A DNA stretch of 64,000 nucleotides, taken from contig JAXHNE010000003.1 of the NCBI GenBank assembly GCA_034520885.1, positions 22,073 through 86,072 on the forward strand, read 5' to 3'. Positions 2,535-62,275 of this stretch are shown one piece after another. Every line of letters begins with the position of its first letter. The stretch's first letter is position 1. A program made the position numbers and the translations under genes. This DNA comes from Candidatus Saccharimonadota bacterium. Its GTDB lineage: Bacteria; Patescibacteriota; Saccharimonadia; Saccharimonadales; JAXHNE01. The notes beneath the pieces were generated by a model. That model was not told where the DNA came from, searched no databases, and was given only the letters and a program-made list of their open reading frames with translations.

Positions 2535-3716
2535 GTGCATAATATTGGTATGCAGGAATCTCCCAAGCCGCCGCGTAAGACGGTGCAAAGTGCAGAGCTG
2601 GAGCGCGAACGCCTTACCAGCCTGGTTAACAGCATGGCCGACGGCGTGATTGCGATTGACGACCAACTGGATATCGTGGTGAGCAACGGCGCCGCGCTGA
2701 ATATTCTGGACGTCAATGCCACCGTTAACGGCAAATCCATTGCCGACTTTCTGCGCCTGGTGGATAAAAACGGCGAAAAAGTGGATATTAAAAAGTTCAT
2801 TCAAGACGTGAAAACTCCCTACAGTACGCGTGACTGGCGCGTCGTGTACGGGGAGAACGACGAAATAAACGTCTACGTGAGTATCGCGCCGGTGCGCTTG
2901 GGCTTCGGTCAAGAAGGAATGCACGGGTACGTAATTTTGCTTCGCGACATAACCCGGGAAAAATCGCTGGAAGAAGAGCGTGACGAGTTCATAAGCGTCG
3001 TCAGCCACGAGCTGCGTACTCCGGTTACTATCGCCGAAGGCAACATAGGTAATATGGAGTTTTTACTGGAAAAGAACGGTATCGAGGACAAAATGCTCAA
3101 CGAAGCCGTCTCGCAAGCCCATACCCAAATTACGTTTTTGGCCGGGCTGATTAACGACTTGGCAACGCTTTCACGAGCGGAACGCGGCAAACTACACGTA
3201 GAGGTGGAGTCCATAAACGTACACGAACTTATAGACGATCTGGTCGGCAGTTATAAGGCCGATGCCGAGAAAAAGGGTCTGCAGCTAAAAAATGAACAAG
3301 ACCCCAACCTGGAGTTGTTGCGGTCCAGCAGGCTGTACGTCCGCGAAATCCTGCAAAACTTCATTACCAATTCCATAAAATACACCCAAGAAGGAAGCGT
3401 ACTGATCGGAGCCAGCCAAAAAGCCGGGGGCGTTGAGTTTTATGTGACTGATACCGGGATCGGTATGAGCAAAGCCGATAAAGAAAAGGTGTTTGATAAG
3501 TTTTTCCGCAGCGAGGATTTTCGCACCCGCGCCAATAGCGGAACCGGCCTGGGCTTATACGTCACCATGAAATTGTCTCGTCTGGTGCGGGCCGATATTA
3601 GCGTGGAGAGCGAACTCAACAAAGGCTCGACATTTTCGATTTACTTTCCCAACCTCCAACCGGAGAACACGCCCCAATCCGGGAAGACCGACTCTACGCC
3701 TTCGGCAAGCGCTTGA
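2535..3716 (+). CDS. sensor histidine kinase with PAS-like N-terminal domain
   Basis: H-box SHELRTP, N-box ILQNFITNSIKYT, G1 DTGIGM, G2 GTGLGL. No response regulator is adjacent. Confidence 0.85.
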   Translation: MHNIGMQESPKPPRKTVQSAELERERLTSLVNSMADGVIAIDDQLDIVVSNGAALNILDVNATVNGKSIADFLRLVDKNGEKVDIKKFIQDVKTPYSTRDWRVVYGENDEINVYVSIAPVRLGFGQEGMHGYVILLRDITREKSLEEERDEFISVVSHELRTPVTIAEGNIGNMEFLLEKNGIEDKMLNEAVSQAHTQITFLAGLINDLATLSRAERGKLHVEVESINVHELIDDLVGSYKADAEKKGLQLKNEQDPNLELLRSSRLYVREILQNFITNSIKYTQEGSVLIGASQKAGGVEFYVTDTGIGMSKADKEKVFDKFFRSEDFRTRANSGTGLGLYVTMKLSRLVRADISVESELNKGSTFSIYFPNLQPENTPQSGKTDSTPSASA

Positions 3717-5175
3717 TAACGTGCATGGCCGGTATACAAATATTGCGGCCTTTCCACTGCACCTTGCCGAACTCGTACTTGACCATCGAAGTCAGCGTTA
3801 AACCGATTTCGGTTAAAATGGCCACCGGAAGATTAAACAACGCCACGGTGCTGTGTAAGGGGTGACTGGCGGACATGATCGCGTAATGGGTAGCCACCAG
3901 TAATATGGTAGCCAAAGCGGCCAGAATGGTCGCGGTGGTCGGTCCGCTCCATAGCCAACTTACGGTAAGCACCAAAGGTCCGAGTAACAGCAGTGTTTCG
4001 ATAAATAGTAAAAATAGTACGTTTTCTGGGCGTTTGCGTAGCGAGGGGTACTTTATTCTCACGGCGGTTTTGAGTTGCTCTTCAATGGGCTTGACGGTGT
4101 TCACCTCTAACTGCTCATCGGCTCGGATGAAAGCGTAGCCGTCGGATTTAACCATTACGCGGGCAAAAAACCTCTCAGGCAAAATGTTATGGCTGACTCC
4201 TTTGAAACGCCCGGCTTCGTTAAGTTCTTTCCGGGATATGAGCCAACAGGTACTTAAAACCGGCGGTCGATTAAACGTGCGGCGCGGTAAGGCCAATTCC
4301 CACCAGTAGCGCAACGGCTGCACCAGGGACGTGTCCACACCACCACCGATACGAAAAGGCAATACGCTCATCATGTCGCGTTTTTTGTCTTTCATGGTGG
4401 TGACCAGGGCACGAATGGCACGCGGGCCGAAGCGGACGTCCACGCCGCAAAACAGCACGATTTCGCCGCTGGCATGCGAGGCAAGCGTTTCGTAGGCCTG
4501 ATTTTTGGCCAACCAACGGTCAGCCGGCGGGTCGCCCTGAATGAAACGTACGCCGTCGTGCGCGAAATCGCGGATAACTTCCGCGGTTCGATCTTGCGAA
4601 CAGTCGTCCAGCACCAATACCTCCAACTTGGGGTAATCATTGGCCAGTACGCTGCGGATACAAGAAGCCAGGTCGTTGGTTTCATTACGCGCGGGGATAG
4701 CTACCGTCACGGTGGGCAATTCTTTGTCGGTAAAATGATGATTCGTGGCGTGGTGTTTGGTTTTTTGCAAGTTTTTGGCGGTAAACGCCAGCAGAAGAAG
4801 CGCGGCGATCACTTGCGCGGCGGCCAAGGCGGTAAGTAGCGTCGTGCCGGCGACGTTCATCACGGCTTCATGGGCACCGACCACCAGAAGTGTCGCGAGC
4901 CCCAACACCAACGAAGTACGCCTCGCGGTTCGCCACTGATAATCGGGGTGGATATCCGGCTTATTCATTTTTAGCATGTTCAAAATTCGAAACAACGCGA
5001 TCAGTCCGAGCAACCACCACAAGCCCACTTTTGGTTCGATAAGGGCAAATCCGAGCCAGACGCTTACCGCCACCAAAGGTACTACCACCAAAAAACGGCG
5101 GTAGTTCCATAAAATTCGGAGTCGTGTGAGCAAAATTTCGGCAATAATACCACCCACAAGCACAAGCATCATCAT
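3694..5175 (-). CDS. membrane-embedded family 2 glycosyltransferase
   Basis: VTVAIPARNE and LVLDDCSQD (DxD-type) motifs flanked by multiple TM helices at both ends. Confidence 0.75.
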   Translation of the reverse strand: MMMLVLVGGIIAEILLTRLRILWNYRRFLVVVPLVAVSVWLGFALIEPKVGLWWLLGLIALFRILNMLKMNKPDIHPDYQWRTARRTSLVLGLATLLVVGAHEAVMNVAGTTLLTALAAAQVIAALLLLAFTAKNLQKTKHHATNHHFTDKELPTVTVAIPARNETNDLASCIRSVLANDYPKLEVLVLDDCSQDRTAEVIRDFAHDGVRFIQGDPPADRWLAKNQAYETLASHASGEIVLFCGVDVRFGPRAIRALVTTMKDKKRDMMSVLPFRIGGGVDTSLVQPLRYWWELALPRRTFNRPPVLSTCWLISRKELNEAGRFKGVSHNILPERFFARVMVKSDGYAFIRADEQLEVNTVKPIEEQLKTAVRIKYPSLRKRPENVLFLLFIETLLLLGPLVLTVSWLWSGPTTATILAALATILLVATHYAIMSASHPLHSTVALFNLPVAILTEIGLTLTSMVKYEFGKVQWKGRNICIPAMHVIKRLPKA

Positions 5176-7888: not shown

Positions 7889-8066
7889 GTAACTAGAGTG
7901 AATATATGTGCACGAGGCTAGACAACGGGGGTGATTTGTAGTACAATTGTGCAGTTACGCACCAGCGACATAGATGTCGCCGTTGTCAGTTGTCTGTCGT
8001 CAGTTATCTGTGAACTAACTGAATACGGAGTACTGATTACTGACTACTAACTTACGGAGTAAATTT

Positions 8067-8498
8067 ATGGCAAAAAAGATCACCGCCAATTTAAAGATGA
8101 AAATTCCCGCTGGGAAGGCCAATGCCGGTCCGCCCGTGGGTTCCACGCTCGGGCAATACGGCGTGAATATGATGGATTTCGTAAATCCGTTCAATGAACA
8201 AACCAAAGACATGGGGAACATCACCGTCACGGCACACATCACCGTGTACGAGGACCGCAGCATGGATTTCCGCATAGTCGGCGAACCGACGGACGATAAA
8301 ATCCGTCGCGTATTAGGCGTGGACAAAGGCTCCGGTACGCCCAATACCGAGAAATTGGATAAAAAGCTTACCGACGCCCAAGTGACCGAAATCGCCGAAG
8401 AAAAGGCCGAGGACATGAACACCACCGATGTAGAAGCCGTAAAGAAAATGGTCGCCGGAACCGCCCGCAGCATGGGCGTGGTGATTGAGGGTAGATGA
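8067..8498 (+). CDS. rplK: 50S ribosomal protein L11
   Basis: MAKKITANLKMKIPAGKANAGPPVGSTLGQYGVNMMDF... matches the canonical L11 N-terminus. Confidence 0.95.
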   Translation: MAKKITANLKMKIPAGKANAGPPVGSTLGQYGVNMMDFVNPFNEQTKDMGNITVTAHITVYEDRSMDFRIVGEPTDDKIRRVLGVDKGSGTPNTEKLDKKLTDAQVTEIAEEKAEDMNTTDVEAVKKMVAGTARSMGVVIEGR

Positions 8499-9232
8499 CT
8501 CACGAAGTAAACTCACCAGAATTTTTTGGGCTTCACCCAGGAGACGAAGGTTATGATACTTTCGCGGACGATTTTCCAGTCGGAGAGAACGGTGTTGCCG
8601 ACTACCGCACCTCTGATTTCGAGATGGGACATGACGTTGGAACGATGGTGTTACGCGATATAGTGCATCAGCACTGGAGTATTGCTAATGTCCACTTTGG
8701 TTACGCGGATATGGATACAAGCCAATACGAGTTCAATAATGGCACTGGTTTCCAGGTGCCACCACTTAGGCCAGAAACGAAGCAAGAGTTCGATAAAATT
8801 CGAAGGGAAATAGATCAACAAAGCCAGGAAATTCACGCACGTCGAAAAGGGCCGGGTTTCAGGTTTGTCCAAGAACGACCAACTCAACACGAAGCACTTT
8901 TGTTGAAAGCAAATAGGCTGCTTGAGAGAATTCAGGCTTTAGACGATCCCGAAGAACGGTCACCCGAGTTAACTGAGATCATTAAAAAAGAACTCAAGCA
9001 GCGAGGGGTGGATTATCTTGAGAAATTGTATGGTTGCGATGTAGCGCAACTTTCAGACGAAGACCGGGAAGTCTTGACAGCAACGAAAAATGCGCTGCGT
9101 ACAAGGGGCGTGTACTTAAAACCAGATTATCTTATGACCGTTAAAGCAAATCAGAAACCTGGAAAACCCGTTGGTAAGGAGCACGAACCCGTCTCTGACG
9201 ATTTAGCTTGGGAACTGATTTATCAAGATTAA
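8495..9232 (+). CDS. hypothetical protein (245 aa) inserted between rplK and rplA
   Basis: ATGA overlap with the rplK stop; no recognisable domain; more AT-rich than neighbours by eye. Confidence 0.45.
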   Translation: MTHEVNSPEFFGLHPGDEGYDTFADDFPVGENGVADYRTSDFEMGHDVGTMVLRDIVHQHWSIANVHFGYADMDTSQYEFNNGTGFQVPPLRPETKQEFDKIRREIDQQSQEIHARRKGPGFRFVQERPTQHEALLLKANRLLERIQALDDPEERSPELTEIIKKELKQRGVDYLEKLYGCDVAQLSDEDREVLTATKNALRTRGVYLKPDYLMTVKANQKPGKPVGKEHEPVSDDLAWELIYQD

Positions 9233-9339
9233 TAAATAATTTTTGTGGGAGCCGTCCTATGCGTAAAGCTACGGAGGCGATTGAACCACGACCCCAGTAG
9301 TAAGCCATGCTACGTACGGGGCAGGAAGGAGTAATAATT

Positions 9340-10302
9340 ATGGCAAAGACGAAAGCGGACTTACTGGCCGAGGCGAAAGAGCTGGGGCTGGATTTGAGTG
9401 AAAAATTAAAGGTAGCGGAAATTGCCGCCGAAATAAAAGCCGCGAAGACCGTGCCGACCGCCAAAGCCGGAAAGCGCAGTAGCAAAGGCATCAAAGAGGC
9501 CGCGGAAAAAGAAGCCAAGCTGGAGCTTCAACAAGAAGGCGACAAAGAAGCCGACGAAGAAGCAGGCAAACCTAAGCAGCCCGTAAAACCGGCGCGGCCT
9601 AAGCTGGAACGCCAAGGCAAGAAGCATCGCGAAGCCGCAAAACTAGTAGAAAAGGGCAAAAACTACGCCCTGAAACCGGCCGCCGAACTTTTACCCAAAA
9701 TTTCTACCGCTAAATTCGACGCGACCGCGGAACTGCACATTCGTTTGAACGTTGATCCCAAGCAGTCCGATCAAAACATTCGTGATCAAGTCGTTTTACC
9801 GGCCGGAACCGGAAAAGACGTTCGCGTGGCGGTATTCGGTGAAGACGCCGAAGTTGCCACGGCCAAAAAAGCCGGGGCGGAAGTAGCCGGGGGAGACAGC
9901 TTGCTTGCTAAACTCGATAAAGGTGAATTTGACTTCGATGTGTTAATTGCCAGCCCGAAAGTAATGGCCAAACTGGGCAAATATGCCCGCCAACTCGGAC
10001 CGAAAGGTTTAATGCCCAACCCGAAGAGCGGTACGGTTTCTACCGATATTGAAAAGGCCGTCACGGAAGCCAAGGCCGGGCGCGTGGAGTACCGGGTAGA
10101 CGAAGCCGGTATCGTACACGTCGCTTTCGGAAAAGTGAGTTTCGGTGCCGATAAATTGCTGGAAAACCTCCAGGCCATCCTGCGCAGCATTAAAAACAAT
10201 AAGCCGGGAAGCATCAAAGGTTCGTATATTTCCAGCGCTTTCGTAACCGTAAGCATGGGGCCGTCCGTGAAGCTGGACATCAGCGAAATAAACGCTTTGT
10301 AA
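9340..10302 (+). CDS. rplA: 50S ribosomal protein L1 with about 95-aa Lys/Ala/Glu-rich N-terminal extension
   Basis: Start chosen at the ATG after GGAAGGAG (the track ORF starts at 9307). Canonical L1 core from ...GKKHREAAKLVEKGKNYALKPAAELLPKISTAKFDATAELHIRL. Confidence 0.9.
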   Translation: MAKTKADLLAEAKELGLDLSEKLKVAEIAAEIKAAKTVPTAKAGKRSSKGIKEAAEKEAKLELQQEGDKEADEEAGKPKQPVKPARPKLERQGKKHREAAKLVEKGKNYALKPAAELLPKISTAKFDATAELHIRLNVDPKQSDQNIRDQVVLPAGTGKDVRVAVFGEDAEVATAKKAGAEVAGGDSLLAKLDKGEFDFDVLIASPKVMAKLGKYARQLGPKGLMPNPKSGTVSTDIEKAVTEAKAGRVEYRVDEAGIVHVAFGKVSFGADKLLENLQAILRSIKNNKPGSIKGSYISSAFVTVSMGPSVKLDISEINAL

Positions 10303-10306
10303 TAAC

Positions 10307-10330
10307 TGTTATATAACTAGTTATATAACA
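10307..10330. repeat. 24-bp perfect palindrome TGTTATATAACTAGTTATATAACA, copy 1
   Basis: Self-complementary by inspection; starts 5 nt after the rplA stop. Confidence 0.9.
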
Positions 10331-10445
10331 GTTTATAGTTGTCAGTCTTCAGTTGTCCGTTCTCAGTCTTCAATCAGCAGATTACAGACAACAAATCACG
10401 GATAACAATTCAAAATATGAAAACTGGCGCCAAACGGTTCAAATA

Positions 10446-10487
10446 AATAATACTAGAATTAATACTAGCATTAATTCTAGTATTATT
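10446..10487. repeat. AT-rich perfect hairpin (18-bp stem, 6-nt loop)
   Basis: AATAATACTAGAATTAAT-ACTAGC-ATTAATTCTAGTATTATT; all 18 pairs checked by hand. Confidence 0.85.
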
Positions 10488-10813
10488 GCTCTGCAACAGG
10501 GGTTAGACAACTGTAACTATAAGATCAATATCGTAGGCAGTAACGAATTATATGAAGCTGACTGGTCAGCTTCCCGTCAGCAATCTTTTGAGTCGGCAAA
10601 AGATTGCAACAAAAGCCGACAGGCGGCTGAAACAACAGCTACGGCCGTTGTCACAATCAGGCTTACTGTGAAACTCACAAAAATAGTCCCACTGGCACTA
10701 TTTTTGCTCAGACAGTCCTCGTACCCAAGGGCGCCTAATTCCCACAACGCCCGTCCAGGTTGTTCCAGAGCCTGGAGCCCAGGTGAACAACTGCCGAGGG
10801 CAGTTGTAACTAC

Positions 10814-10840
10814 ATAAAAAAACAAGCTTGAGGCTTGTTT
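10814..10840 (-). terminator. terminator-like hairpin (T-run on minus strand)
   Basis: A7 followed by AACAAGC-TTGAG-GCTTGTT. Confidence 0.35.
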
Positions 10841-10904
10841 GCCCAAACAGTTCGGTCAGAGCCCGGAACAACGCAACTACCGAAGACGGAGGACGGACAA
10901 CTGA

Positions 10905-11165
10905 CAACTACCACCCCTCATCTATCGCCTATCATCCATCAACTATCAATCCTCATCTATTGCGACGAAGTCGCTCGCCATCTTCCACCTTCCAAATTCC
11001 ATCTTCCACCTACCAACTACCACCTACTAACTACCACTCATCTATCATCCATTGCGACGAAGTCGCCTACCACCTACTAACTTCCATATTCCAACTTCTA
11101 CCCTCTAACCTCTAACCTCTAACGTCTACCCTCTAGCATCTAACCCTTAAAACCTATAAACTAAC
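10905..11165 (+). repeat. G-depleted tract with 7-nt periodicity, interrupted by two GCGACGAAGTCGC hairpins
   Basis: CCA recurs every 7 nt from 10978 to about 11036. CTA recurs every 7 nt from 11098 to 11163. ATTGCGACGAAGTCGC occurs twice (about 10959-10974 and about 11051-11066). Confidence 0.8.
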
Positions 11166-11169
11166 CAAC

Positions 11170-11649
11170 ATGGGGCATATTCACGAACTCTACGATTTTA
11201 CGGCCAGCGCGTTTATCGTGAATGATCAGCGAGTATTGCTTATACACCATAAAAAAATTGGCAAGTGGCTCCAGCCCGGAGGGCATATTGAGCTTGATGA
11301 AGACCCTTTGCAGGCGCTATACCGTGAAATCAAGGAGGAAACTGGCTTAACCAAAGACGCGCTTTCGATCATTGAGACGACACAGCATAAACGAAGTCGG
11401 GGCAAGAAAGGCAACAACAAAATATTGCCGCTACCGTTTGACATCAACGTGCATCCTTTTAACGACACTCATAAACATATTGATCTTTGCTACTTATTAA
11501 CCGCTAGTCACGACACTGTCGTAAATGAAGAGGATAAAGCCCATGATATTGGGTGGTTCACGCTGACAGAAATAAAACGATTAACTGCGCGCGGTCTGGC
11601 GTTCCCCGATACGCTGGAACTGGCTACCTTCGCGCTTAAATACGCCTGA
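11170..11649 (+). CDS. Nudix hydrolase
   Basis: Nudix box GGHIELDEDPLQALYREIKEETGL. Confidence 0.85.
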   Translation: MGHIHELYDFTASAFIVNDQRVLLIHHKKIGKWLQPGGHIELDEDPLQALYREIKEETGLTKDALSIIETTQHKRSRGKKGNNKILPLPFDINVHPFNDTHKHIDLCYLLTASHDTVVNEEDKAHDIGWFTLTEIKRLTARGLAFPDTLELATFALKYA

Positions 11650-11728
11650 AGTTCTGCTACAATAAACTTATGATTATGCTGGCAATTCGACGCTGGGTTC
11701 CGTATTTGGATGAAATGCAAGAAAGGGT

Positions 11729-12502
11729 GTGTTTTTCAAAATGATCGTACTGGGAATGACCGGGCCGATTAGTCACGGCAAAACCACCTTCGCCGAAGCC
11801 CTTGAAGAACTGGAGCCCAAAACCATCCACCTGGAGTCCAGTATCGTGATCGCGCGGGTGGCCAATGCCATGCACGCCGTTTTGGAGCGCGTGCCCGATC
11901 CGTACGATATCCAAGATTTGAACGAATGGCTGAAGCATCTGCCCCGAATTTTAAAAGAAACCGTCCACACCGACGCTACTTTCGAGCAACTTCGCCTGGA
12001 TCAAGCCAGTATCGAACAGCACCCGGTAGAGTATCAAAAACTGATTATTCACGTTGAACAACTGCGTAAAGACCCGGGGCTAGCGCGCCAGGCAATAACG
12101 ATTGACAATAAAGAAACGTATCGACCGTTTTTGCAGTGGCTGGGCGGTTATCTCGTGCAAAAAGTCGATTCCGACATCTGGTTCAACGAAATCGTTCGCA
12201 TGATGTACGAGGCCGAGTCCACCGGTGTGAAGCTGTGTATTATTGGTGGTTTACGTTTTCCCAACGATGCCGCGGCCATTCGCCACGCCGGCGGGCAAAT
12301 CGTAAAAGTCTATCGGCCCGGACATTTGCAAAACGACATGCTGGATCCGACGGAACGGGAACGTGATAATATTCCGGTGGACTGTACGATTATGAGTAAC
12401 GGCACCGTAGAAGACGTTAAAGTCTGTGCCAAACACGTACTGGAAGATATTCGCAATAATCGCTTGTCCTCGTTATACCAAACCAAACGCGAAAATACCT
12501 AA
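11729..12502 (+). CDS. P-loop nucleotide/nucleoside-monophosphate kinase-like protein
   Basis: N-terminal MIVLGMTGPISHGKTTFAE Walker A; sits inside a deoxypyrimidine gene cluster. The start could be the internal ATG at 11741. Confidence 0.45.
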   Translation: MFFKMIVLGMTGPISHGKTTFAEALEELEPKTIHLESSIVIARVANAMHAVLERVPDPYDIQDLNEWLKHLPRILKETVHTDATFEQLRLDQASIEQHPVEYQKLIIHVEQLRKDPGLARQAITIDNKETYRPFLQWLGGYLVQKVDSDIWFNEIVRMMYEAESTGVKLCIIGGLRFPNDAAAIRHAGGQIVKVYRPGHLQNDMLDPTERERDNIPVDCTIMSNGTVEDVKVCAKHVLEDIRNNRLSSLYQTKRENT

Positions 12503-12603
12503 GCATAAGCTTATTGGATAATATTACAACGCTTTTGACAATTTTTTACTTGCCGATTCCTCTGTTAGTTAGCTACACTGGTAGTCAAACGCGGAGGTAA
12601 CGT

Positions 12604-13317
12604 TTGGGAGTTTATAGTAATAAACAAATTCGTGAGGCGATAGAAAACGAGCATATTGTCTGCGTGCCGTTTAATCCGAGACACGTCAGCCATGCCAGTA
12701 TGGACGTAACACTGGGGTATTACTTTTATCAAACCGACCAGGCCAAAAAAGGCTATGTCTACAATCCGTTCGATGAAGCCGACGTCCGGCGCTATTTCGG
12801 AGAGGTACAGCAAGCAGTGCCGCACAAGGACTGGTGTGCCGCCAACGGCGTACGTTTACTCGAAGGCGTCCCGGGAGATCACCCGGTAATCCCGCTCGGC
12901 CCGGGAGAGCGAATCCTGGCTCACACCCACGAGTTCTTCGGTATCAAGCCGCCGGGAGCGTACGAGGTGAAATCCCGTTCCAGCTGGGGGCGCAACGGCA
13001 TCGCGGTATGTTTTGACGCCGGCTGGGTCGACCCGGGGTATATTAATCGCTTAACCCTGGAAATTTATAACTTGAACGAACACGAAACAGTGCTGCTTCC
13101 GGTCGGCGAACGAATCGCCCAGGCGGTCTTCTTAGAAACCGGTGAGGTCGAAGGCAACTACGGCGAAGGGCGTGACGACGGTATGAGCGGTAAGTACCAA
13201 ACCGGCACCAACCTGGAAGAGCTGATTTCCGGATGGACGCCGGAGCAGATGCTTCCCAAAGCGTACAAGGACAAGCGTTCTCTCCCGGGAGTGATAAAGG
13301 GTTTAAAAGCCCGGTAA
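12604..13317 (+). CDS. dcd: dCTP deaminase (dUTPase-fold)
   Basis: TTG start; motifs SMDVTLG, GWVDPGYINRLTLEIYN, VGERIAQAVF typical of the Dcd family. Confidence 0.8.
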   Translation: MGVYSNKQIREAIENEHIVCVPFNPRHVSHASMDVTLGYYFYQTDQAKKGYVYNPFDEADVRRYFGEVQQAVPHKDWCAANGVRLLEGVPGDHPVIPLGPGERILAHTHEFFGIKPPGAYEVKSRSSWGRNGIAVCFDAGWVDPGYINRLTLEIYNLNEHETVLLPVGERIAQAVFLETGEVEGNYGEGRDDGMSGKYQTGTNLEELISGWTPEQMLPKAYKDKRSLPGVIKGLKAR

Positions 13318-13394
13318 CCCCCGTTAAAAACGGTGATGGAGATTTATATGAGTCAGGACACGAGCAAACAAACACGGAAAGGGCCTTTAGCGGG

Positions 13395-15740
13395 ATGACA
13401 CAAGCCGAGGAACAAGGTGTGTTTTTTGTTATTGAAGGAACTGACGGTTCCGGCAAAGGTACTCAGTTTCAAAAATTAGCGGAACGGTTAAGCGGTGAAG
13501 GCTACGACGTCGCCACCTTTGACTTTCCGCGGTACGACCAACCCTCCAGCTATTTCGTACGTGAATATTTAAACGGCAATTACGGCTCCGCGGAAAATGT
13601 CGGCCCTTACACCGGTTCACTGTTTTACGCTTTGGATCGTTACGCGGCCGCCCGGCACATACGCGAAGCGTTAAACCAAGGCAAGATCGTACTGGCCAAC
13701 CGTTTCAGCGGCTCTAACATGGCGCACCAAGGAACGAAGTTCCAACACAGCGAAGAACGGCGCGGCTATTTCATTTGGCTGGATAATTTGGAATTCCAGA
13801 TGCTGGACATTCCGCGCCCGACCAAGTCGTTCGTGCTGCGCGTTCCGGCGGATATCGCCCAAAAACTGGTCGACCAAAAGGGCAAGCGCGAATATACCGA
13901 CAAAAAACGCGATTTGCACGAGGCAGATATTGACCACTTGCGAAAATCGGTAGAGGTGTTCGACGAACTGTGCGAACTCTTCCCCAGGGATTTTCAGCGG
14001 ATAGATTGCGTGCGGGATAAAAAGTTGATGGACGTTGAGCGGGTACACGAACAACTGTATAAAACCATTGAGTCGTATCTGCCCAAACCGAACGAAAAGC
14101 CTGGCTCTCAAGACTCCAAAGCGGCAAAAACGGAAGTCAAAACTACCAAGGGCGACGTTGAATACGTCACCAAGGATGACGAAGGCATTTACCGCATGAC
14201 GAAAGCCGGCGAGGATTACTTAAGTGATATCGTTACCAGCACCGAAGATAACGTCTACGCTTTTACCGAGGAACTGCCGCCATTGACCATTTCCGCGGCC
14301 ATGGCCCGCCTCTCACGCCGGGGTGACGATATGCGCGTGACCATTTTGGACGAGTTCACGCACGCCGCGCAAAAGGACGAAAAACTGCTTAAAAAGGTGA
14401 TCACCGCTTACGGGGACGACTCCGTGCAGCAGCTCGTCGGGCAACACGTCGTGGTGGAGGAAGCCTCCAACCTGCTGACAAAAAAGCTGGAATGGGGGCG
14501 TTTGGCGGCCTATTTGGAGCAGTCCACGCGCTACATTTACTTTGATCAGAAGGATCGCCGCGGTAAATACAAATATGTCGTACCCGATCACTTCGATGAA
14601 CCCACCAAAACGGCGTACGTAAAATCCATGGACACTATTTTTGACGGGTATTCCAAGCTGGTACGCCAACTGACCGATTATATTCGCGGCAAGGACAAAA
14701 CGCCGGAAAAAGAGCGTGACGGGGCGTGGAAAGGCGCGACGCGAGCCCAGGCCTGTGATGCCGCCCGCCCGCTGTTACCGGTGGCCACCAAGTCCACGGT
14801 GGGTATTTACGCCTCCGGACAGGCACTGGAAAGCCTGATCATGCACTTAATGGCCGACGAACTCCCGGAAGCCAAACGAACCGGTGAAAAACTCCTCAAG
14901 CACGCCCGCGAAGTCATCCCCACGTTTTTGGAAAGAGCCGACAAGCCGGATCGTGGCGGAGCCACCATTGCTTATTTGGCGAACACGCGAAAAGGCGTTG
15001 CCGAACTAGCCAAAAAAGAACTCCCGGAAAACTATGCCCCGGAAACCGAGGCGGTCACTCTTAATTCGCACTGGCCGAAAAATGAGCTCGACCTGGTGCC
15101 GGATATGCTTTATGAACACAGCAGCTTGCCGCTGGAAGACATTAAAAACGAAGTCCGCACCTGGCCGATCGATAAAAAATACGAAGTGTTCGACGCTTAC
15201 GTGGGCGAACGCCTGAATCGGCGGCACAAGCCGGGGCGAGCCATTGAAAAAGCGCATTACAGTTGGGATTTGGTGTGTGATTACGGGATTTTCCGTGATT
15301 TGCAGCGGCACCGCATGGTGGATGATTTGAATTGGCAAATACTTACGCCGCGTTACGGATATGACACGCCAAATATCGTGGAAGAAGCCGGTTTGAGCGA
15401 TCTGTTCCTGGCTTGTTTCGACGAAAGCCTAAAACTCTACAGCGCGCTACAATCCGCCGGTTACGAGCACGAAGCGCAATACGCCACGCTACTGGGGCAC
15501 AAAATGCGCTGGAAAGTGACTTACAACGCCCGTGAGGCCTTCCACTTGCACGAACTACGCACCAGCCCGCAAGGACACCCCGGGTATCGCAAACTCGTAA
15601 AAGAAATGCACGACAAGCTGTGCGAAGTCCACCCCGTACTTGGCGAAGCCATGAAATTCGTCAACAAAGGCGAAGATCCCGAATTATCGCGTCTAGCCGC
15701 GGAGCGCTACACCCAATTCAAGCTAAAAAACCTGTCTTAG
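13395..15740 (+). CDS. fusion protein: thymidylate kinase (N-terminal) plus duplicated ThyX-like FAD-dependent thymidylate synthase (C-terminal)
   Basis: The Tmk part carries FFVIEGTDGSGKGTQ and DRY. The ThyX-like halves carry AAYLEQSTRY, LQRHRMV...TPRYG and HLHELRTSPQGHPGYR. Start set at the in-frame ATG 13395 because the track ORF (13233) overlaps the dcd end. Confidence 0.7.
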   Translation: MTQAEEQGVFFVIEGTDGSGKGTQFQKLAERLSGEGYDVATFDFPRYDQPSSYFVREYLNGNYGSAENVGPYTGSLFYALDRYAAARHIREALNQGKIVLANRFSGSNMAHQGTKFQHSEERRGYFIWLDNLEFQMLDIPRPTKSFVLRVPADIAQKLVDQKGKREYTDKKRDLHEADIDHLRKSVEVFDELCELFPRDFQRIDCVRDKKLMDVERVHEQLYKTIESYLPKPNEKPGSQDSKAAKTEVKTTKGDVEYVTKDDEGIYRMTKAGEDYLSDIVTSTEDNVYAFTEELPPLTISAAMARLSRRGDDMRVTILDEFTHAAQKDEKLLKKVITAYGDDSVQQLVGQHVVVEEASNLLTKKLEWGRLAAYLEQSTRYIYFDQKDRRGKYKYVVPDHFDEPTKTAYVKSMDTIFDGYSKLVRQLTDYIRGKDKTPEKERDGAWKGATRAQACDAARPLLPVATKSTVGIYASGQALESLIMHLMADELPEAKRTGEKLLKHAREVIPTFLERADKPDRGGATIAYLANTRKGVAELAKKELPENYAPETEAVTLNSHWPKNELDLVPDMLYEHSSLPLEDIKNEVRTWPIDKKYEVFDAYVGERLNRRHKPGRAIEKAHYSWDLVCDYGIFRDLQRHRMVDDLNWQILTPRYGYDTPNIVEEAGLSDLFLACFDESLKLYSALQSAGYEHEAQYATLLGHKMRWKVTYNAREAFHLHELRTSPQGHPGYRKLVKEMHDKLCEVHPVLGEAMKFVNKGEDPELSRLAAERYTQFKLKNLS
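15711..15739 (+). repeat. 3'-end repeat of the tmk-thyX gene, copy 1 (functional end)
   Basis: ACCCAATTCAAGCTAAAAAACCTGTCTTA. Confidence 0.9.
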
Positions 15741-15874
15741 CTTCGTGGATTATTAGAGCAAAATTTTTAACTCCAGCGCGAAACATATCGAGTGATACGT
15801 TGAGCAAAGAGTTGGGAATTTTGGCTGATAAGGCCGGAGGTAAGGTGGTTATTTTGGTTTGACTTGGGTGTATG

Positions 15875-15903
15875 ACCCAATTCAAGCTAAAAAACCTGTC
15901 TTA
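15875..15903 (+). repeat. 3'-end repeat of the tmk-thyX gene, copy 2 (orphan)
   Basis: Identical 29 bp, preceded by ATG and followed by A, giving the mini-ORF MTQFKLKNLS-stop. Confidence 0.9.
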
Positions 15904-15912
15904 AGCCACTTT

Positions 15913-16371
15913 TTAGTCAGCTAGAGTAAGCAGGTCTTCGCGGACGCTTTCACTGGTTTCTGGTAATCGATGTGACAATACGGAAAAATTGGATGCATCG
16001 TCGATGAATCCCGTTTGGGTTGCCATTGGGCCGATACATTCAATTACTCTGAGCGTTCTTTCGCTTTCCGGATCGTAAAGATCAATCGCACCGGATATTG
16101 TGGATGGAGCTTCGAAAGTGTTTTCAGCTTCCTCGATTCCGTGAGATCGAAGATTCATGATCAAAGAAAGCCACACCTTATTGGAGACTGCTTCCGGATT
16201 GGCTACCCGAGGAAAGTGCCCAATATTAGCACTGGCTTGTTTCGTTTGGTCATTTCTAATTGCCTTAACGACTCTGTCAATTCGTTCATGCAATGGGGAA
16301 ATGTCGATTTCACCTTCCGGAGACGGTATTTCAATGCCATATTGTAGATACGGGTCATTCTCGATATTCAT
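15913..16371 (-). CDS. hypothetical protein (152 aa)
   Basis: ORF with a GAGGAAG RBS; no recognisable motif. Confidence 0.45.
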   Translation of the reverse strand: MNIENDPYLQYGIEIPSPEGEIDISPLHERIDRVVKAIRNDQTKQASANIGHFPRVANPEAVSNKVWLSLIMNLRSHGIEEAENTFEAPSTISGAIDLYDPESERTLRVIECIGPMATQTGFIDDASNFSVLSHRLPETSESVREDLLTLAD

Positions 16372-16383
16372 TGCTTCCTCATG

Positions 16384-16420
16384 AAAAAACCGGATCCCTT
16401 TTCTCGGAGATCCGGTTTTT
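16384..16420. terminator. bidirectional terminator-like hairpin
   Basis: AAAAAA-CCGGATC...GATCCGG-TTTTT. Confidence 0.45.
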
Positions 16421-16780
16421 GTCTTTCTTGATTCTTATCTATTTAAACCGTTTCCGAGTGAATTAAATGCGCACCTTCACGAATGCGTACATACGCACCG
16501 GAAGAATGTTGCAGGTAATTTGATGGATTCGGTTCATCACGTAGACAATCCTACTCTGGTAAAAAAACCTTGTCAAGTGCAAATTTTTGTACTATGGTGT
16601 GAATATTATGGCATTTAACCAATTGCGAAACTTGCTACTACTTCTCGGCCTTCGCGGGTCGTGCTTCGCAATGGTTGAAGCCGAGATCTCTTAAGAAAAA
16701 CAAAAAGATCTTGAAGACACGACCGATACAGCAAAGGCTTCAACTGTCTACGTATTAATTAAGTAAACAGGAGCTATGAA

Positions 16781-17050
16781 GTGAAGTTTGAATATGATCG
16801 ATGCGGAATACCCGAGGACGTTGATGTAGAATGGAGAGCAGTGCGCGTGGAGAATAACGACCCTGGAAGAGTGGCTCATTTTGAAGCAAGGATCCCAGAA
16901 GGTAGGCCTATTCCACACGAAGAAGCAGTACGCAAAGAGAGTGCAGAAATTCATCAACGTCGTGTTGAGGCTGATATTGTAGCTGGTGAGGAAGTTTCAG
17001 CTGAGCAAGTTGGCGTCGGTTCCATTGCCTCTCGAGTTTATGGTTCATAA
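16781..17050 (+). CDS. hypothetical protein (89 aa, GTG start)
   Basis: AGGAG RBS 7 nt upstream; no motif recognised. Confidence 0.35.
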   Translation: MKFEYDRCGIPEDVDVEWRAVRVENNDPGRVAHFEARIPEGRPIPHEEAVRKESAEIHQRRVEADIVAGEEVSAEQVGVGSIASRVYGS

Positions 17051-17051
17051 C

Positions 17052-17079
17052 TTGACAAATTAAAACAACGGCGTACTAT
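17052..17079 (+). promoter_or_regulatory. sigma70-like promoter
   Basis: TTGACA, 16-nt spacer, TACTAT. Confidence 0.4.
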
Positions 17080-17085
17080 TTTTGG

Positions 17086-17195
17086 TATGACTCTAGCGAG
17101 CACTATCATTATTACGATTGATGGAGCACACCCGAGCGGGCGCTAGGTTTATATTTGTCAAAAAAAACGAAACGGCCCCGCAAGGGGTCGTTTTT
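17086..17195 (+). ncRNA. candidate small RNA (promoter-to-terminator unit of about 110 nt)
   Basis: Bounded by the promoter at 17052-17079 and the terminator at 17173-17195; contains no ORF. Confidence 0.25.
17173..17195 (+). terminator. intrinsic terminator
   Basis: CGGCCCC-GCAA-GGGGTCG stem with a GCAA tetraloop, followed by TTTTT; an A-run precedes it. Confidence 0.6.
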
Positions 17196-17215
17196 AGTGA
17201 GAAAGGAAATAAGTT

Positions 17216-17728
17216 ATGACAACTGTACTCCCATCATCAAGAGAAGTATTAGAGAGTCAAGACCCTGGAGACTTCAAGGTAAAACAAAAAACACCAACCG
17301 AAAGATTGCTAGAAGACGATCCCATGCTGATTTTTAAATTGACGAAGCTAGCGGGTTTGGCAGGTTTTCGTGTTGAACCCACGAGAAACAACGACGGCAT
17401 GTCTAAACAGCAGCGACACGGCCAAAACGAACACAGGAGAAAATACGCGCAGGTTAGCTCCGTAACGGACCGAGTTCATGAAAGACTTGAGGGGTTTGCG
17501 TTATCGGACGACCAAATGGATCAGATCCGTCAGTTTGAAAACGGTTTTTTTCCAGCGGGCTGCGATTTTGACGATAAGGAACGTGAAACGGTGAGAAGTG
17601 GGGCCGAAAATGACGAGTTCTTGGCCTTGAGCTACGAATACTTGCCAGAGCCACAATTAGAACCGCGGGTAAATAAGTCGATTTCACACGCGGCACGGTT
17701 GGCGATAATCAATCAACACAGTGATTAA
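17216..17728 (+). CDS. hypothetical protein (170 aa)
   Basis: GAAAGGAAA RBS; no motif recognised. Confidence 0.45.
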   Translation: MTTVLPSSREVLESQDPGDFKVKQKTPTERLLEDDPMLIFKLTKLAGLAGFRVEPTRNNDGMSKQQRHGQNEHRRKYAQVSSVTDRVHERLEGFALSDDQMDQIRQFENGFFPAGCDFDDKERETVRSGAENDEFLALSYEYLPEPQLEPRVNKSISHAARLAIINQHSD

Positions 17729-17882
17729 GCGTTGATTAATAAGCGATTTTTTGCTACACTCACGATGTTACCAAAGACAGCGACCGTCTTTAGGACTTAA
17801 TCCGCCGAATGGCGAAGTCGCCGAGGAATAACTAGTGATTAGGGCTTAGGGTCTAGGATCTAGATTATGCAAGAACTTGATA

Positions 17883-17912
17883 AGTCTTTGGGTTACACCA
17901 AAGGCTTTTTTT
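17883..17912 (+). terminator. intrinsic terminator/attenuator upstream of rplJ
   Basis: AGTCTTTGG-GTTACA-CCAAAGGCT (9 bp including one G-U pair), followed by T7. Confidence 0.55.
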
Positions 17913-17925
17913 ATGGTAACGAATA

Positions 17926-17990
17926 GTGCAAAGAATGTTTGGTCGATCTTCTTTGCACGCAGCTCGTAGTTCCTACGAAATATGAGCTGC
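17926..17990 (+). promoter_or_regulatory. structured rplJ 5' leader (possible L10 autoregulatory leader)
   Basis: Hairpins GTGCAAAGAA...TTCTTTGCAC and GCAGCTC...GAGCTGC directly upstream of rplJ. Confidence 0.3.
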
Positions 17991-18024
17991 TAAATACTAA
18001 ATACGAAACTCCAAAGGAGTTTAA

Positions 18025-18549
18025 ATGGCTTTAACTAAAGCAAAAAAGAAGGAAGTCGTTGAGGAAGTCTCTCAGCTTTTGAAAGATTCCAAGATGACGA
18101 TCATTGCTTCTTACCAAGGAACGCCCGTGAAGGCCATGCAAGCGCTTCGTGCGCAAGGCAGGGAAAACGGAACGGAGCTTAAGGTGATCAAGAACCGTTT
18201 GGTTATCCAGGCGCTAAAAGACACCGACTCCCATAAGGACGCCGATACGTCCGCACTGGAAGGTATGTTGTTATACGCTTTTAACGAGGGTGATGAAGTC
18301 GCTCCCGCGCAAACCATTGCCAATTTTGCCAAAAAGCAAAAGACGCTGCAGTTCGTCGGAGCGTACACCGCGGACGGAAAGTTTCTTCCGGCGGATGAAG
18401 TACGCGAACTTTCCGAATTGCCAAGCCAAACCCAGTTGATCGCACAAGTGATGAGCACGCTTTCGTCACCGCTGGACGGTTCAATCAGCGGATTGGCCGA
18501 TGGACTATCGGGAATTCTTTCCGGGTTAGAAGAAAAAGCGGCGAACTAA
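18025..18549 (+). CDS. rplJ: 50S ribosomal protein L10
   Basis: MALTKAKKKEVVEEVSQLLKDSKMTIIASYQGTPVKAMQALR...; followed by rplL. Confidence 0.95.
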   Translation: MALTKAKKKEVVEEVSQLLKDSKMTIIASYQGTPVKAMQALRAQGRENGTELKVIKNRLVIQALKDTDSHKDADTSALEGMLLYAFNEGDEVAPAQTIANFAKKQKTLQFVGAYTADGKFLPADEVRELSELPSQTQLIAQVMSTLSSPLDGSISGLADGLSGILSGLEEKAAN

Positions 18550-18655
18550 GTTCGCATGTAAAACGTCCAAAGTTTAAAGTTCAAAGAATCCATGAGCTTC
18601 ATAACTTTCTACTTTTAAACATTTAACTAGTAATTTTCACGAAAGGAAAATTTCA

Positions 18656-19042
18656 ATGGCAACTGATTTAAAGAAATTAGCCGAGCAACTGACAGGACTT
18701 ACCGTTCTGGAAGTAAACGAACTAAAGAACATCCTAAAAGACGAATACGGCATTGAGCCGGCCGCTGCCCCCGTAGCAGTCGCTGGTGCTCCCGCTGCCG
18801 GCGGTGAAGACGAAGGCGGTGAGGAAGAAAAGAGCGAATACGACGTCGTTCTGAAGGACGCCGGCGCTCAAAAGGTCGCCGTTATCAAGGCCGTCAAAGA
18901 CATGACCGGTCTCGGACTCGGTGAAGCCAAGGCTATCGTTGATGGCGCACCAAAGGCCGTCAAGGAAAAGGCTCCGAAAGAAGAAGCCGAAGAAGCCAAG
19001 AAGACGCTCGAAGAAGCCGGAGCTACAGTCGAGTTAGGATAA
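18656..19042 (+). CDS. rplL: 50S ribosomal protein L7/L12
   Basis: Ala/Pro hinge and C-terminal domain [29 protein letters not shown]. Confidence 0.95.
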
Positions 19043-19195
19043 CTCGACTAGGCGTAGATCCCGCCGCATTTCTGAGTGGAGCGATAAGCAATCTGATCGT
19101 GAAACTTCACGAAATGCAGCGGTGACCGGAGCGACCGTAGAACTAGCGTAGCTAGTTCAGCAACTAGTAACTAGAAATTAGGAACTAGCCAAAAA

Positions 19196-19221
19196 CCGCT
19201 CGGAAACCCCGGGCGGTTTTT
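19196..19221 (+). terminator. intrinsic terminator after rplL
   Basis: CCGCTCGG-AAACC-CCGGGCGG, followed by TTTTT. Confidence 0.6.
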
Positions 19222-19367
19222 ATATTATTCGATTATGAAGCGGAATATCACCACGTGTGCCGTTATTTATCCACAGGTTTGGTGTCTGTTTTGACTTCTC
19301 TGAGAAAAGGTGATAGTTTTATGTCAGAAGTGTGCCAAATAAAAACACTTTGAGAGAGACGAATAAA

Positions 19368-19880
19368 ATGGCAGACATTCCAGACAAACAGATAAAACGC
19401 CTGAAAGCTCTAATTCAAGAATCAGAGACATCCTTGGCAGCGGCCAAAGAATTGTTATTGAGTTTGGTCGGTGAAGAACCGGTAGCAGAGAAGCTCTCCG
19501 AAGAAGAACAGCAAACCGGAAAGATCATTGAAGGTGTATTTGACGGCCAAAATATGGTCGGATCGGACGGCAAAACCTATCCCGTTCCGGCGAACTATGC
19601 CAGCAAATCCAAGCTCGTCCAGGGTGACATTTTGAAACTGACTATCGCGGACGACGGGTCATTCATGTACAAGCAAATCGGTCCGATTCCCCGTAAACAG
19701 GTTGTCGGTGAACTGGTGCAGGAAAACGGCCATTATTACGTAAAAGTCGGTGACCGCGACTACCGTGTTCTGCTCGCCAGCGTAACGTACTTTAAAGCCA
19801 AGCCGGGCGATCAGGTGAGCGTGAATATTCCGGAAGATGATGCCCACGCGGAATGGGCAGCTTTGGAAGCAGCGCTTTAG
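19368..19880 (+). CDS. hypothetical protein (170 aa)
   Basis: Start at MADIPDK; no motif recognised. Confidence 0.5.
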   Translation: MADIPDKQIKRLKALIQESETSLAAAKELLLSLVGEEPVAEKLSEEEQQTGKIIEGVFDGQNMVGSDGKTYPVPANYASKSKLVQGDILKLTIADDGSFMYKQIGPIPRKQVVGELVQENGHYYVKVGDRDYRVLLASVTYFKAKPGDQVSVNIPEDDAHAEWAALEAAL

Positions 19881-20109
19881 CGCAGCTTCCAATTTTCAAT
19901 TTTCAAGTCTCAATTTTCAAACGCAGCGTTTAAATTCTTCTTGTGGTTTGTTCGAAGAAACTCGCAACTTAAAACGCAGTAAAAAAACCTTGAAGAATAT
20001 GAAGTTGTTGCTGTTGTTTTGACCTGGAATCGCGTGCCGTAGAACGTTATAATTGGGCAAGCAAAGGAGGTTGGCTAGTTTCTATTTTCTCGTTGCTAGT
20101 TACTAATAT

Positions 20110-21639: not shown

Positions 21640-21667
21640 AGAAGAGATTCGAGCGAAGGGAGAATAC

Positions 21668-40789: not shown

Positions 40790-40898
40790 ATATCGAAAAA
40801 CTACCTCTTAGTCTTGAGAGACGAAATCCGTGCAAGCGAAGCGCATCCTGCATCCCCGGCCATTCATTATGTTATAATTTTAATATTAACAATTTGAC

Positions 40899-40996
40899 AA
40901 TATAAAGAGTGCGGGGAGAGACTTGCTTGTTGATCCGCCAGCAACCTATCTAACGACAAGGTGCTCCATCAAGCCCTGTATAGGGAAAGATATACA
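40899..40996 (+). promoter_or_regulatory. SAM-I (S-box) riboswitch aptamer
   Basis: Hand alignment to the S-box consensus. AAGAG junction, kink-turn-like GGAG/UGAU in P2, CAGCAACC...GGUGCU (P3), CCCU-GUAU-AGGG (P4), AAAGAUAU closing P1. GGGAAAG can alternatively pair with the terminator 5' arm. Confidence 0.6.
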
Positions 40997-44509: not shown

Positions 44510-44533
44510 TGTTATATAACTAGTTATATAACA
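44510..44533. repeat. 24-bp palindrome, copy 2
   Basis: TGTTATATAACTAGTTATATAACA. Confidence 0.9.
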
Positions 44534-45468: not shown

Positions 45469-45493
45469 TGTATGTGGGTATCGTTGGGAAAAG

Positions 45494-62256: not shown

Positions 62257-62275
62257 TACGCGTCCTCCATGTCTT

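Follow-up and report, generated by a model that had tools for sequence, protein, structure and literature searches.

Mazel and co-workers reportedly described, in 1990, the cyanobacterial STRR heptamers CCCCAGT, TTGGTCA and CAACAGT in Calothrix and Anabaena. Elsewhere, fixed words repeated at a short period are read by oligomeric proteins: the HutP site is UAG-N4-UAG-N4-UAG, the TRAP site consists of eleven (G/U)AG-N2-3 repeats, and the omega repressor binds contiguous (WATCACW)n heptads. In the survey of Mrázek, Guo & Shah (2007), as far as it is relayed in PMC4679880 and PMC4692102, heptanucleotides are the most abundant long simple-sequence repeats (SSRs), for which polymerase slippage was proposed; STRR sequences are mentioned in PMC4692102 as well. 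According to MacGregor (2015; PMC4679880), TAACTGA repeats in Beggiatoaceae, Cyanobacteria and Bacteroidetes sit immediately 5′ of start codons, some of them within ribosomal-protein operons. No RNA structure is predicted for these repeats, which share long arrays with other heptamers; the spacers of relatives are shorter and repeat-free, indels occur in steps of 7 nt, and contigs break off within the repeats. Rehm et al. (2015; PMC4692102) described intergenic GGGAATC/GGGGAYT heptamers of Xanthomonas and Nostoc that vary in length and sequence between strains and in some cases form inverted array pairs. Here, we report degenerate arrays of seven-nucleotide units (heptads) in a Candidatus Saccharimonadota bacterium, namely in a 64-kb stretch of contig JAXHNE010000003.1 (positions 22,073–86,072, forward strand; the whole stretch is called the window). 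In the literature searched, we found no report of heptad arrays in Saccharibacteria or the Candidate Phyla Radiation (CPR).

Tandem Repeats Finder returned periods of 7, 14 or 21 at 7982, 8018, 10329, 10918, 10978, 11006, 11093, 17990, 18568, 19162, 19890 and 63767, and the eleven arrays that an earlier note on this sequence had indexed by hand are all present to within 1–2 nt (Table 1). In a sliding autocorrelation of the window, which is 88.7% coding, 364 segments scored at least 0.57 at lag 7, compared with 0–14 in Markov shuffles and 3–56 at other lags. When confined to spacers, lag 7 had 318 such segments against a mean of 1.25 and a maximum of 26 in within-spacer shuffles, which bears out the enrichment over shuffled spacers that the note had put up for testing; among the other lags from 4 to 15, lag 8 gave 14 segments, lag 12 gave 33, the harmonic lag 14 gave 218 and the rest none. 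Apart from period 7 and its harmonics 14 and 21, the non-coding sequence of the window shows no periodicity. Lag-7 identity amounts to 0.301 in non-coding versus 0.246 in coding sequence, and 10 of 11 segments are non-coding despite the high coding density (binomial P = 3e-9). Fourier power at 1/7 is weak (0.95 vs 0.67) because words and phases change, making autocorrelation the right statistic for these repeats.

Arrays were found in seven of the 37 spacers of at least 40 nt: upstream of rplK, between rplA and a NUDIX gene, in the rplJ leader, between rplJ and rplL, after rplL, upstream of dnaX, and between atpA and atpG. The first six of these belong to the rplK-rplA-rplJ-rplL-dnaX cluster between 7.9 and 20.1 kb. 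The earlier claim that many intergenic stretches are built in this way thus stands as to their non-coding location and narrows to a minority of spacers. All arrays lie at transcribed, non-coding RNA positions, and arrays A, C (the main tract), E, I and J end 0–16 nt before a Shine-Dalgarno (SD) sequence or ATG.

Table 1. Heptad arrays and associated elements, in window coordinates.
Feature	Start	End	Strand	Setting and units
Array A	7982	8050	+	rplK (L11) 5′ leader; (GTTGTCA)x4, then (ACTGAYT/ACGGAGT)x5
Array B	10336	10412	+	Directly after rplA (L1) stop and palindrome; CAGTYKT-type units x10
Hairpin-rich insert	10372	10878	+	At least 8 near-perfect stem-loops, enclosed by inverted heptad arms
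Array C (main tract)	10879	11165	+	41 heptad units, one continuous array
Mini-hairpin ATTGCGACGAAGTCGC, copy 1	10959	10974	+	Exactly two heptad units, in phase with the array
Mini-hairpin ATTGCGACGAAGTCGC, copy 2	11051	11066	+	Contig of a second assembly (Logan) begins here
Array D	17829	17865	+	Inside rplJ (L10) leader; (NNNNTAG)x5
Array E	17983	18010	+	Between leader hairpin and SD-sequestering hairpin of rplJ; CTAAATA-type units
Array F	18567	18640	+	rplJ-rplL spacer; (NAAAGTT)x3, GCTTC-containing loop, (NAACTTT)-type units
Array G	19141	19190	+	rplL 3′ region; AACTAGN / NNNNTAG x6
Array H	19888	19922	+	Directly after stop of conserved 170-aa gene; (CAATTTT)x5
Array I	20075	20109	+	Abutting dnaX ATG at 20110; CTAGTTT-type units x5
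Array J	63767	63808	-	atpA-atpG spacer; (CTATCAC)x6 on sense (-) strand, G-free

In agreement with the earlier note, the period is the sole invariant, with composition, strand bias, stop codons, folding and fixed triplets all varying from array to array. Units of an array are 76–90% identical, and words change within one and the same array. The trinucleotides regarded as fixed recur at the stated spacing but not without lapses, as CAG/CNG occupies 7 of 10 units (the rest being CAA), CCA 8 of 9, and CTA 9 of 10 and 4 of 5. Stop codons fall in all three sense frames in five of the ten arrays (A, C, D, F and G), array J (atpA-atpG) holds one stop in total and array H none. No structure is predicted for the main tract, E, H and J, whereas weak-to-moderate hairpins of complementary heptad arms are predicted in A, the halves of which are roughly complementary (fold z = -3.0), in F, where the hairpin is no stronger than in shuffles (z = -0.7), and in the syntenic relative L137. 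A uniform structural state, be it none or a hairpin, was therefore rejected (z = -3 in A, -4.5 in a single L137 tract and ~0 in others), and so was a uniform depletion of G on the sense strand (G<C in 19 arrays, G>C in 13). Array J, flanked by the atpA stop on one side and the GGAGG of atpG on the other, constitutes the longest C-free run on the + strand of the window.

Laid out at seven bases per line, the main tract resolves into vertical columns across its whole length. Its phase is unbroken for the first 23 units (10879–11039), spanning four word families and a 14-nt hairpin, before a +1 single-base slip near 11039. Along the tract, the word morphs gradually through the series ACGGAGG, ACGGACA, ACTGACA, ACTACCA, CTATCA, TCCACCT, ACCAACT, TTCCAAC and CTCTAAC. 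Identity is 0.57 at lag 7, 0.55, 0.52 and 0.48 at lags 14, 21 and 28, and 0.18–0.35 at other lags. Neighbouring units differ at 2.9 of 7 positions versus 4.5 in shuffled order, a value that none of 2000 shuffles reached, and the distance between units rises steadily with their separation, as it does in three arrays of L137. This similarity of neighbours, together with a phase held across words, is the mark that local duplication in steps, with later substitution, leaves behind. The tract further contains a 79-nt internal duplication (10953–11031 vs 11045–11123, 75% identical) that includes the mini-hairpin ATTGCGACGAAGTCGC, both copies of which had been seen before; the hairpin proper, TTGCGACGAAGTCGC, measures exactly two units and leaves the array phase undisturbed.

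The G-depleted tract of 260 bp described earlier lies within this 41-unit array. G makes up 14 of the 261 nt at 10905–11165 (5.4%), and C 39.5%; the two copies of ATTGCGACGAAGTCGC account for ten of these G, and no G-free run elsewhere in the window is as long as the two found here (76 and 58 nt). The tract ends 4 nt before the NUDIX ATG (11170), a start without SD, and such G-free sequence on its sense strand is nearly devoid of SD-like sequences, start codons and structure (predicted fold of 276 nt at -19.6 kcal/mol, i.e., essentially unstructured). A protein-coding tract was considered and rejected: the open reading frames (ORFs) at 10828–11115 and 10353–10817 have no Pfam match and their translation is not protein-like, long ORFs being a chance product of G-free sequence. 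Small GCGA(C)…(G)TCGC hairpins were also seen in or next to five array-bearing spacers (at 7965, 10962, 11054, 17812 and 18541), with 16 matches in the 64 kb. The tract has two copies of GCGAC-GAA-GTCGC, whose C-GAA-G loop is similar to the highly stable mini-hairpin GCGAAGC.

Relatives were sampled around rplJ and dnaX, and their genes were taken from crude ORF calls. Four syntenic loci (L082–L085) have the same unusual gene order, with L1 proteins 65–73% identical to that of the window. The distance between L1 and NUDIX is 22 nt in L083, L084 and L085 versus 867 nt in the window, where the insert is made up of a perfect palindrome of 30 nt, array B, a hairpin-rich segment of 510 nt and the 41-unit array. 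The first 35 nt of array B are the inverted partner of 10879–10910 (repeats I1/I2, 75–86% complementary, 510 nt apart), and the region 10300–10920 folds at -211 kcal/mol compared with -140 ± 6.8 in shuffles (z = -10.4). A search of 10250–11250 against Rfam yielded sub-threshold miRNA noise and no known RNA family, the insert had no match in phages or plasmids, ORF translation in the hairpin-rich segment is not protein-like, and neither the window nor the fetched loci contain the insert a second time.

Other spacers are expanded as well. Downstream of a promoter-like site (7919–7947) and the leader start GTTACGCAC, both kept in relatives, the L11 leader extends for ~50–57 nt in array-free relatives versus ~106 nt in the window and L083. 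Array A occupies the interval between this conserved start and the rplK SD, ending 16 nt before the ATG (8067) and just 5′ of the GGAG. The L10-L12 spacer measures 26 nt in L082 versus 106 nt in the window. Compared with the relatives' sequences, the arrays are thus net insertions. L083 carries arrays of different words at the spacers used in the window (L11 leader, L10 leader, upstream of L10, and L10-L12), and in the L10 leader the (NNNNTAG)5 arrays of both are orthologous, having the common end units TAACTAGTGAWTAG ... TATGCAARAAC and differing by whole units. The relatives closest by L11 (L085, L082, L088 and L084) have short leaders without arrays, and array presence does not follow the L11 phylogeny. 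Overall, period-7 arrays with other words occur in L083, L103, L132, L137, L146 and L149, partly in the same spacers, and most relatives have none; arrays of the NNNNTAG type recur in L103, L132, L146 and L165. A conserved period with drifting words, which the earlier note had advised looking for in relatives, was thus found.

The L11 leaders also share a feature of their own, in that a hairpin whose stems co-vary while its GCUUC(A) loop is invariant sits 3′ of the conserved promoter and GTTACGCAC in L085, L082, L088, L084, L104, L113, L119, L003 and L120. In L083 and L137, the stem arms of this hairpin are lengthened by heptads; the L11 leader of the window is without a GCUUC loop, and a GCTTC loop is present instead in the hairpin of its rplJ-rplL spacer (18590–18602). 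Upstream of rplJ in the window (17990–18030) and in L082, L083 and L103, the SD lies inside a conserved small hairpin, CUCC-AAA-GGAG (variants UUCC-AAA-GGAA), just 5′ of which the heptad arrays stop. Upstream of dnaX (20040–20112), the window has a TATAAT, an AAGGAGG and then a 35-nt heptad array between this SD-like sequence and the ATG. In L082, L083, L084, L003 and L004, a TATACT/TATAAT box is positioned 9–10 nt before the ATG and there is no SD, which suggests that the dnaX mRNA may be leaderless in these relatives.

The trait is real, lineage-patchy and extends beyond this window, at odds with the possibility, raised earlier, that it might be confined to it. In 80 metagenome loci around L10 relatives, there are 53 segments at lag 7 compared with 11–19 at lags 4, 5, 8, 10, 11 and 13, and exact triplet runs over 645 kb (window plus relatives) number 106 at period 7 and 5–14 at periods 5, 8, 10 and 11. 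At least 33 of 44 segments in the relatives are non-coding (P = 6e-19). No period-7 excess was seen in 270 kb of other labelled Saccharibacteria loci, and 1 Mb from other phyla gave 47 versus 10–16, an excess that stems from few loci (Peribacteria, Chloroflexota, Eubacteriaceae). Near dnaX, multi-word heptad arrays were seen in L042 (11449–11577), L020 (6026–6263), L018 (2151–2242) and L037 (5816–7051), whose hosts are Peribacteria, Eubacteriaceae, Chloroflexota and one unclassified bacterium; several of these are paired with an inverted array, e.g. ATGTACA… / …ACATTGT.

L137, which has the same synteny, carries eight arrays that reach lengths of up to 280 nt and use many words, CCCCAGT-like units among them (15562–15713). 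In its L1 gene, heptad arrays (GCTCAAA, GAAGATA; 3422–3800) encode the initial ~65 aa together with some of the linker and are translated into disordered protein. At 11660–11869 and 15567–15772, two array-plus-SD leaders with different genes downstream are 81–84% identical over ~210 nt and share the unique 3′ end …CTCTAACCTCC…GTTTTGCAAAATGCCC…AACGGAGTATA; a leader of array plus SD has been duplicated here within a single genome. The L1 protein encoded in the window likewise has an N-terminal extension of ~100 aa (9340–9640), with a helix-extension-helix-like start followed by a K/E-rich linker.

How does this locus compare with the described systems? The window's arrays belong to the general heptanucleotide-repeat class, and they fall outside the word-defined families (TAACTGA, STRR, WATCACW). 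As in long SSRs, the units are arranged head to tail, exceed both chance and other unit lengths, and are non-coding. With the heptanucleotide SSRs of Mrázek et al. (2007), as represented in the two later papers, they share the over-representation of tandem 7-nt units relative to other lengths, intergenic location, sporadic phylogeny and a proposed origin by slippage; relative to that same account, the present arrays are strongly degenerate, change words within an array, and reside in Saccharibacteria, a roughly 1-Mb-class episymbiont lineage. The TAACTGA repeats resemble them in their position before start codons, in the ribosomal-protein operons concerned, in the absence of RNA structure from predictions, in mixed words, repeat-free relatives and contig breaks. 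They differ in that the window has six single copies of TAACTGA, none in tandem, and favours no single word; within array A, TAACTGA occurs once, alongside the variants TACTGAT, TACTGAC and TACTAAC. Like the Xanthomonas and Nostoc heptamers, the arrays are intergenic, recur between the same gene pairs in related strains and form inverted array pairs, but those heptamers are G-rich and G-quadruplex-forming, whereas the main tract is G-depleted on the sense strand and the G runs of its complement are no longer than GG. To the STRR sequences they are similar in that several heptamer families coexist per genome in intergenic, transcribed positions, and L137 uses CCCCAGT-like units; however, no STRR word occurs in tandem in the window, and the phylum is another.

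Taken together, we favour the reading, with a probability of roughly 60%, that the arrays are heptanucleotide SSRs born by slippage in 7-nt steps, decayed by substitution and tolerated as transcribed spacer. Short 7-nt duplications in non-coding DNA would have grown through strand slippage, 7, 14 or 21 nt at a time. The units would then become blurred as point substitutions accumulate, and variant units would be re-amplified locally, which would account for blocks of different words in one continuous phase. As 7 is not a multiple of 3, such arrays would survive almost only outside genes; that heptads also run through the disordered L1 extension of L137 is in line with a mutational process. An inverted partner arm may arise when template switching at quasi-palindromes copies an array, and the inverted array pairs and perfect hairpins of the insert would fit such a process. 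Transcribed in 5′ leaders, intercistronic spacers and 3′ regions, the arrays would act as passive spacer, setting conserved RNA elements (promoter, leader hairpins, attenuator, SD) further apart rather than being sequence-specific signals themselves, and we infer that they have no sequence-specific function. At the L1-NUDIX junction, the ~290-nt tract and the hairpin-rich insert would have turned 22 nt into an 867-nt spacer, leaving the SD-less NUDIX start behind ~290 nt of what is predicted to be open RNA. Of the explanations offered in the earlier note, slippage-generated filler hence fits best, given the gradient of similarity among neighbours, a phase that persists across words, expanded spacers and the period as the only shared property.

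Several points weigh against this reading. The near-identical locus pairs L131/L132, L145/L146, L163/L164 and L116/L117 have no length polymorphism and no indels, and thus give no direct sign of ongoing slippage. Arrays cluster in ribosomal-protein, dnaX and atp spacers with 30 other spacers of at least 40 nt array-free, which a purely neutral process does not predict, and of 33 non-coding arrays, about 24 terminate no more than 50 nt from a start codon. Two lineages with L10 proteins 67% identical have kept TAG in all units of the L10-leader array; this retention, together with the recurrence of NNNNTAG, could reflect selection. Finally, the tests made provide no explanation for a step size of 7.

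Part of this evidence speaks for a different reading, in which the arrays are mRNA binding platforms, i.e., single-stranded RNA read in a 7-nt register by a protein or subunit ring so as to tune translation or attenuation of highly expressed operons (expression levels being deduced from gene identity). Candidates for such a reader would be a cold-shock-domain or S1-type chaperone with a 6–7-nt footprint or, for arrays with UAG-N4 spacing, a HutP/TRAP-like oligomer. Arrays lie in transcribed leaders beside ribosome-binding sites, and array D occupies the L10 attenuator system itself: it falls in an unpaired linker that joins the L10-binding domain to the attenuator hairpin and contains 21 nt inserted with respect to the RF00557 model, and its five UAGs at period 7 (17833–17865), 17 nt before the hairpin, have the spacing of HutP sites. 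A threefold UAG-N4 occurs 15 times versus 0.12 expected, the TAG array is kept at the same place in L083, and sites of HutP, TRAP and omega repressor offer precedent for a fixed triplet or heptad at a short period read by an oligomeric protein, arrays D and G being exactly UAG-N4. However, the other arrays of the window use other words and many different fixed triplets, such that no single reader protein fits, the omega consensus is absent, and sense strands carry both TAG and CTA orientations. The close relatives L085, L082, L088 and L084 do without arrays at the same spacers, so that arrays are dispensable. No reader candidate was identified; the unknown ORFs near arrays lack Pfam matches, and a Pfam scan covering part of the window's ORFs had no HutP match. 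Binding platforms were also proposed for the TAACTGA repeats (MacGregor; PMC4679880), and we regard them as an unlikely explanation for the present arrays. The more specific claim that some Saccharibacteria use heptad arrays as register-specific mRNA-leader binding lattices of translation and ATP-synthase operons appears rather doubtful to us; its clearest case would come from the UAG-N4 arrays in the linker of the rplJ attenuator and at the 3′ end of rplL, with a HutP/TRAP-like ring or a chaperone of the cold-shock type as the binder. If true, such a register would provide tiny genomes with a cheap, evolvable regulator of ribosomal-protein stoichiometry, slippage would be the generator of a selected element, and the function of STRR-type heptamers would gain a tractable model.

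For the main tract alone, its composition raises the prospect of a Rho utilization (rut)-like entry site or attenuator separating the L1 transcript from NUDIX, or of a ribosome standby site for the SD-less NUDIX gene. The tract, with a C/G ratio of 103/14 and 65 YC dinucleotides, has what a rut site calls for (at least ~80 nt of C-rich, G-poor, unstructured and untranslated RNA), it lies directly 5′ of an SD-less ATG, and all 50 of the 78-nt segments on the + strand with G<=3 and C>=25 fall within 10968–11172. In L137, the NUDIX gene is also preceded by a G-poor heptad leader without SD. Against this, the other arrays do not share the composition, three relatives manage with a 22-nt junction, and heptad arrays are abundant in cyanobacteria, which to our knowledge lack Rho. 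We thus consider a rut-like or standby role quite improbable.

Less probable again is a mobile or duplicative cassette, according to which the L1-NUDIX spacer, and perhaps other arrays, would resemble a miniature inverted-repeat transposable element with heptad terminal inverted repeats, or an array-plus-SD leader would move as a module. Inverted heptad arms (10336–10371 and 10879–10910) do enclose 510 nt absent from relatives, and both the paired leaders of L137 before different genes and the discordance with the L11 phylogeny are in keeping with movement. Yet the lack of a second copy and of phage or plasmid matches argues otherwise, no transposase lies nearby, no target-site duplication is evident at the arm ends by inspection (no systematic scan was made), and the right arm continues in phase into the tract, as in-situ growth would have it.

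A function at the DNA level, either as heptad operators for a cooperative repressor, such as the omega repressor of pSM19035, or through intrinsic curvature, strikes us as very unlikely: contiguous heptads are a proven binding format and array J, (TATCACC)n, resembles the omega heptad WATCACW, but there is no tandem WATCACW in the window, array J is intra-operonic rather than at a promoter, and words differ among sites. Curvature, which the earlier note had listed, is unlikely because 7 bp would run out of phase with the 10.5-bp helical repeat, so that phased bending is not expected. Least tenable is that note's proposal of all-frame translational insulators, in which stops every 7 nt would catch ribosomes in any frame between coupled genes, for even though TAG/TAA units give all-frame stops in arrays A, C, D, F and G, the stop counts largely refute it as a general property (in the other five arrays, one or more sense frames are free of stops, the CAATTTT array H having no stop and J a single one), several arrays lie in 5′ leaders or after terminators, out of ribosome reach, and relatives have tight, array-free junctions.

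The slippage-born repeats favoured here extend the heptanucleotide-repeat syndrome, known before from cyanobacteria, Beggiatoaceae, some Bacteroidetes, Xanthomonas and Burkholderia, to the CPR. They lie in a streamlined genome, within its most conserved operons, a place where one would not expect 867 nt of non-coding insert. The syntenic series, with 22-nt junctions and short leaders on one side and arrays of other words on the other, forms a natural before/after comparison that could help to decide between neutral slippage and tuned spacers, and to explain why the step is 7. In practical terms, the arrays break short-read assemblies of these genomes and create spurious ORFs such as 10828–11115.

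The sequence basis of the window was assessed with a second assembly (Logan, SRR26473340), which is 100% identical over 11046–21649 (10.6 kb) and 61719–63771 (2 kb). Its contig ends fall within the main tract and the array at 63767, the usual behaviour of short-read assemblers at repeats, and since contigs break at arrays, they extend the window by 1.5 kb on the left and by 0 on the right. The inner tract (10905–11045), including its exact number of units, is supported by one assembly. An assembly artefact was rejected for the arrays as a class, the same kind of arrays being present in independent assemblies from other samples; for the exact number of units in 10905–11045, it stays conceivable.

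Genes in the window were assigned by Pfam and Rfam as SecE, NusG, L11, L1, NUDIX, dNMP kinase, dCTP deaminase, a Tmk-ThyX fusion, L10, L7/L12, the conserved 170-aa protein, DnaX and, on the minus strand, ATP synthase gamma. The closest DnaX in reference genomes is from Saccharibacteria, at an identity of at most 48%, and the L1 protein matches without any difference one annotated in an NCBI metagenome-assembled genome of a Candidatus Saccharibacteria bacterium. The L10 leader corresponds to Rfam RF00557 (17753–17920), and array G adjoins, directly 5′, an intrinsic terminator (19191–19221). A nucleotide-metabolism block (NUDIX, dNMP kinase, dCTP deaminase, Tmk-ThyX fusion and small unknown ORFs) is kept between rplKA and rplJL in the clade (window 8067–20110; L082–L085 and L137), and extra unknown genes lie between L11 and L1 and also after L12 in the same loci.

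The palindrome of the L1-NUDIX insert is one of five perfect 24–30-nt copies of TGTTATATAACTAGTTATATAACA in the window (10304–10333, 44510–44533, 45490–45517, 50257–50280 and 57089–57112). Each lies just downstream of a gene end, three between convergent genes, with no T-tract after them; the element may be a repetitive extragenic palindromic (REP)-like sequence, a bidirectional terminator or an operator. Elsewhere in the window, there are genes for tRNA-Trp (786–861) and tRNA-Gln (33497–33571), and an S-adenosylmethionine (SAM) riboswitch (40897–40996) is located upstream of the gene at 41035.

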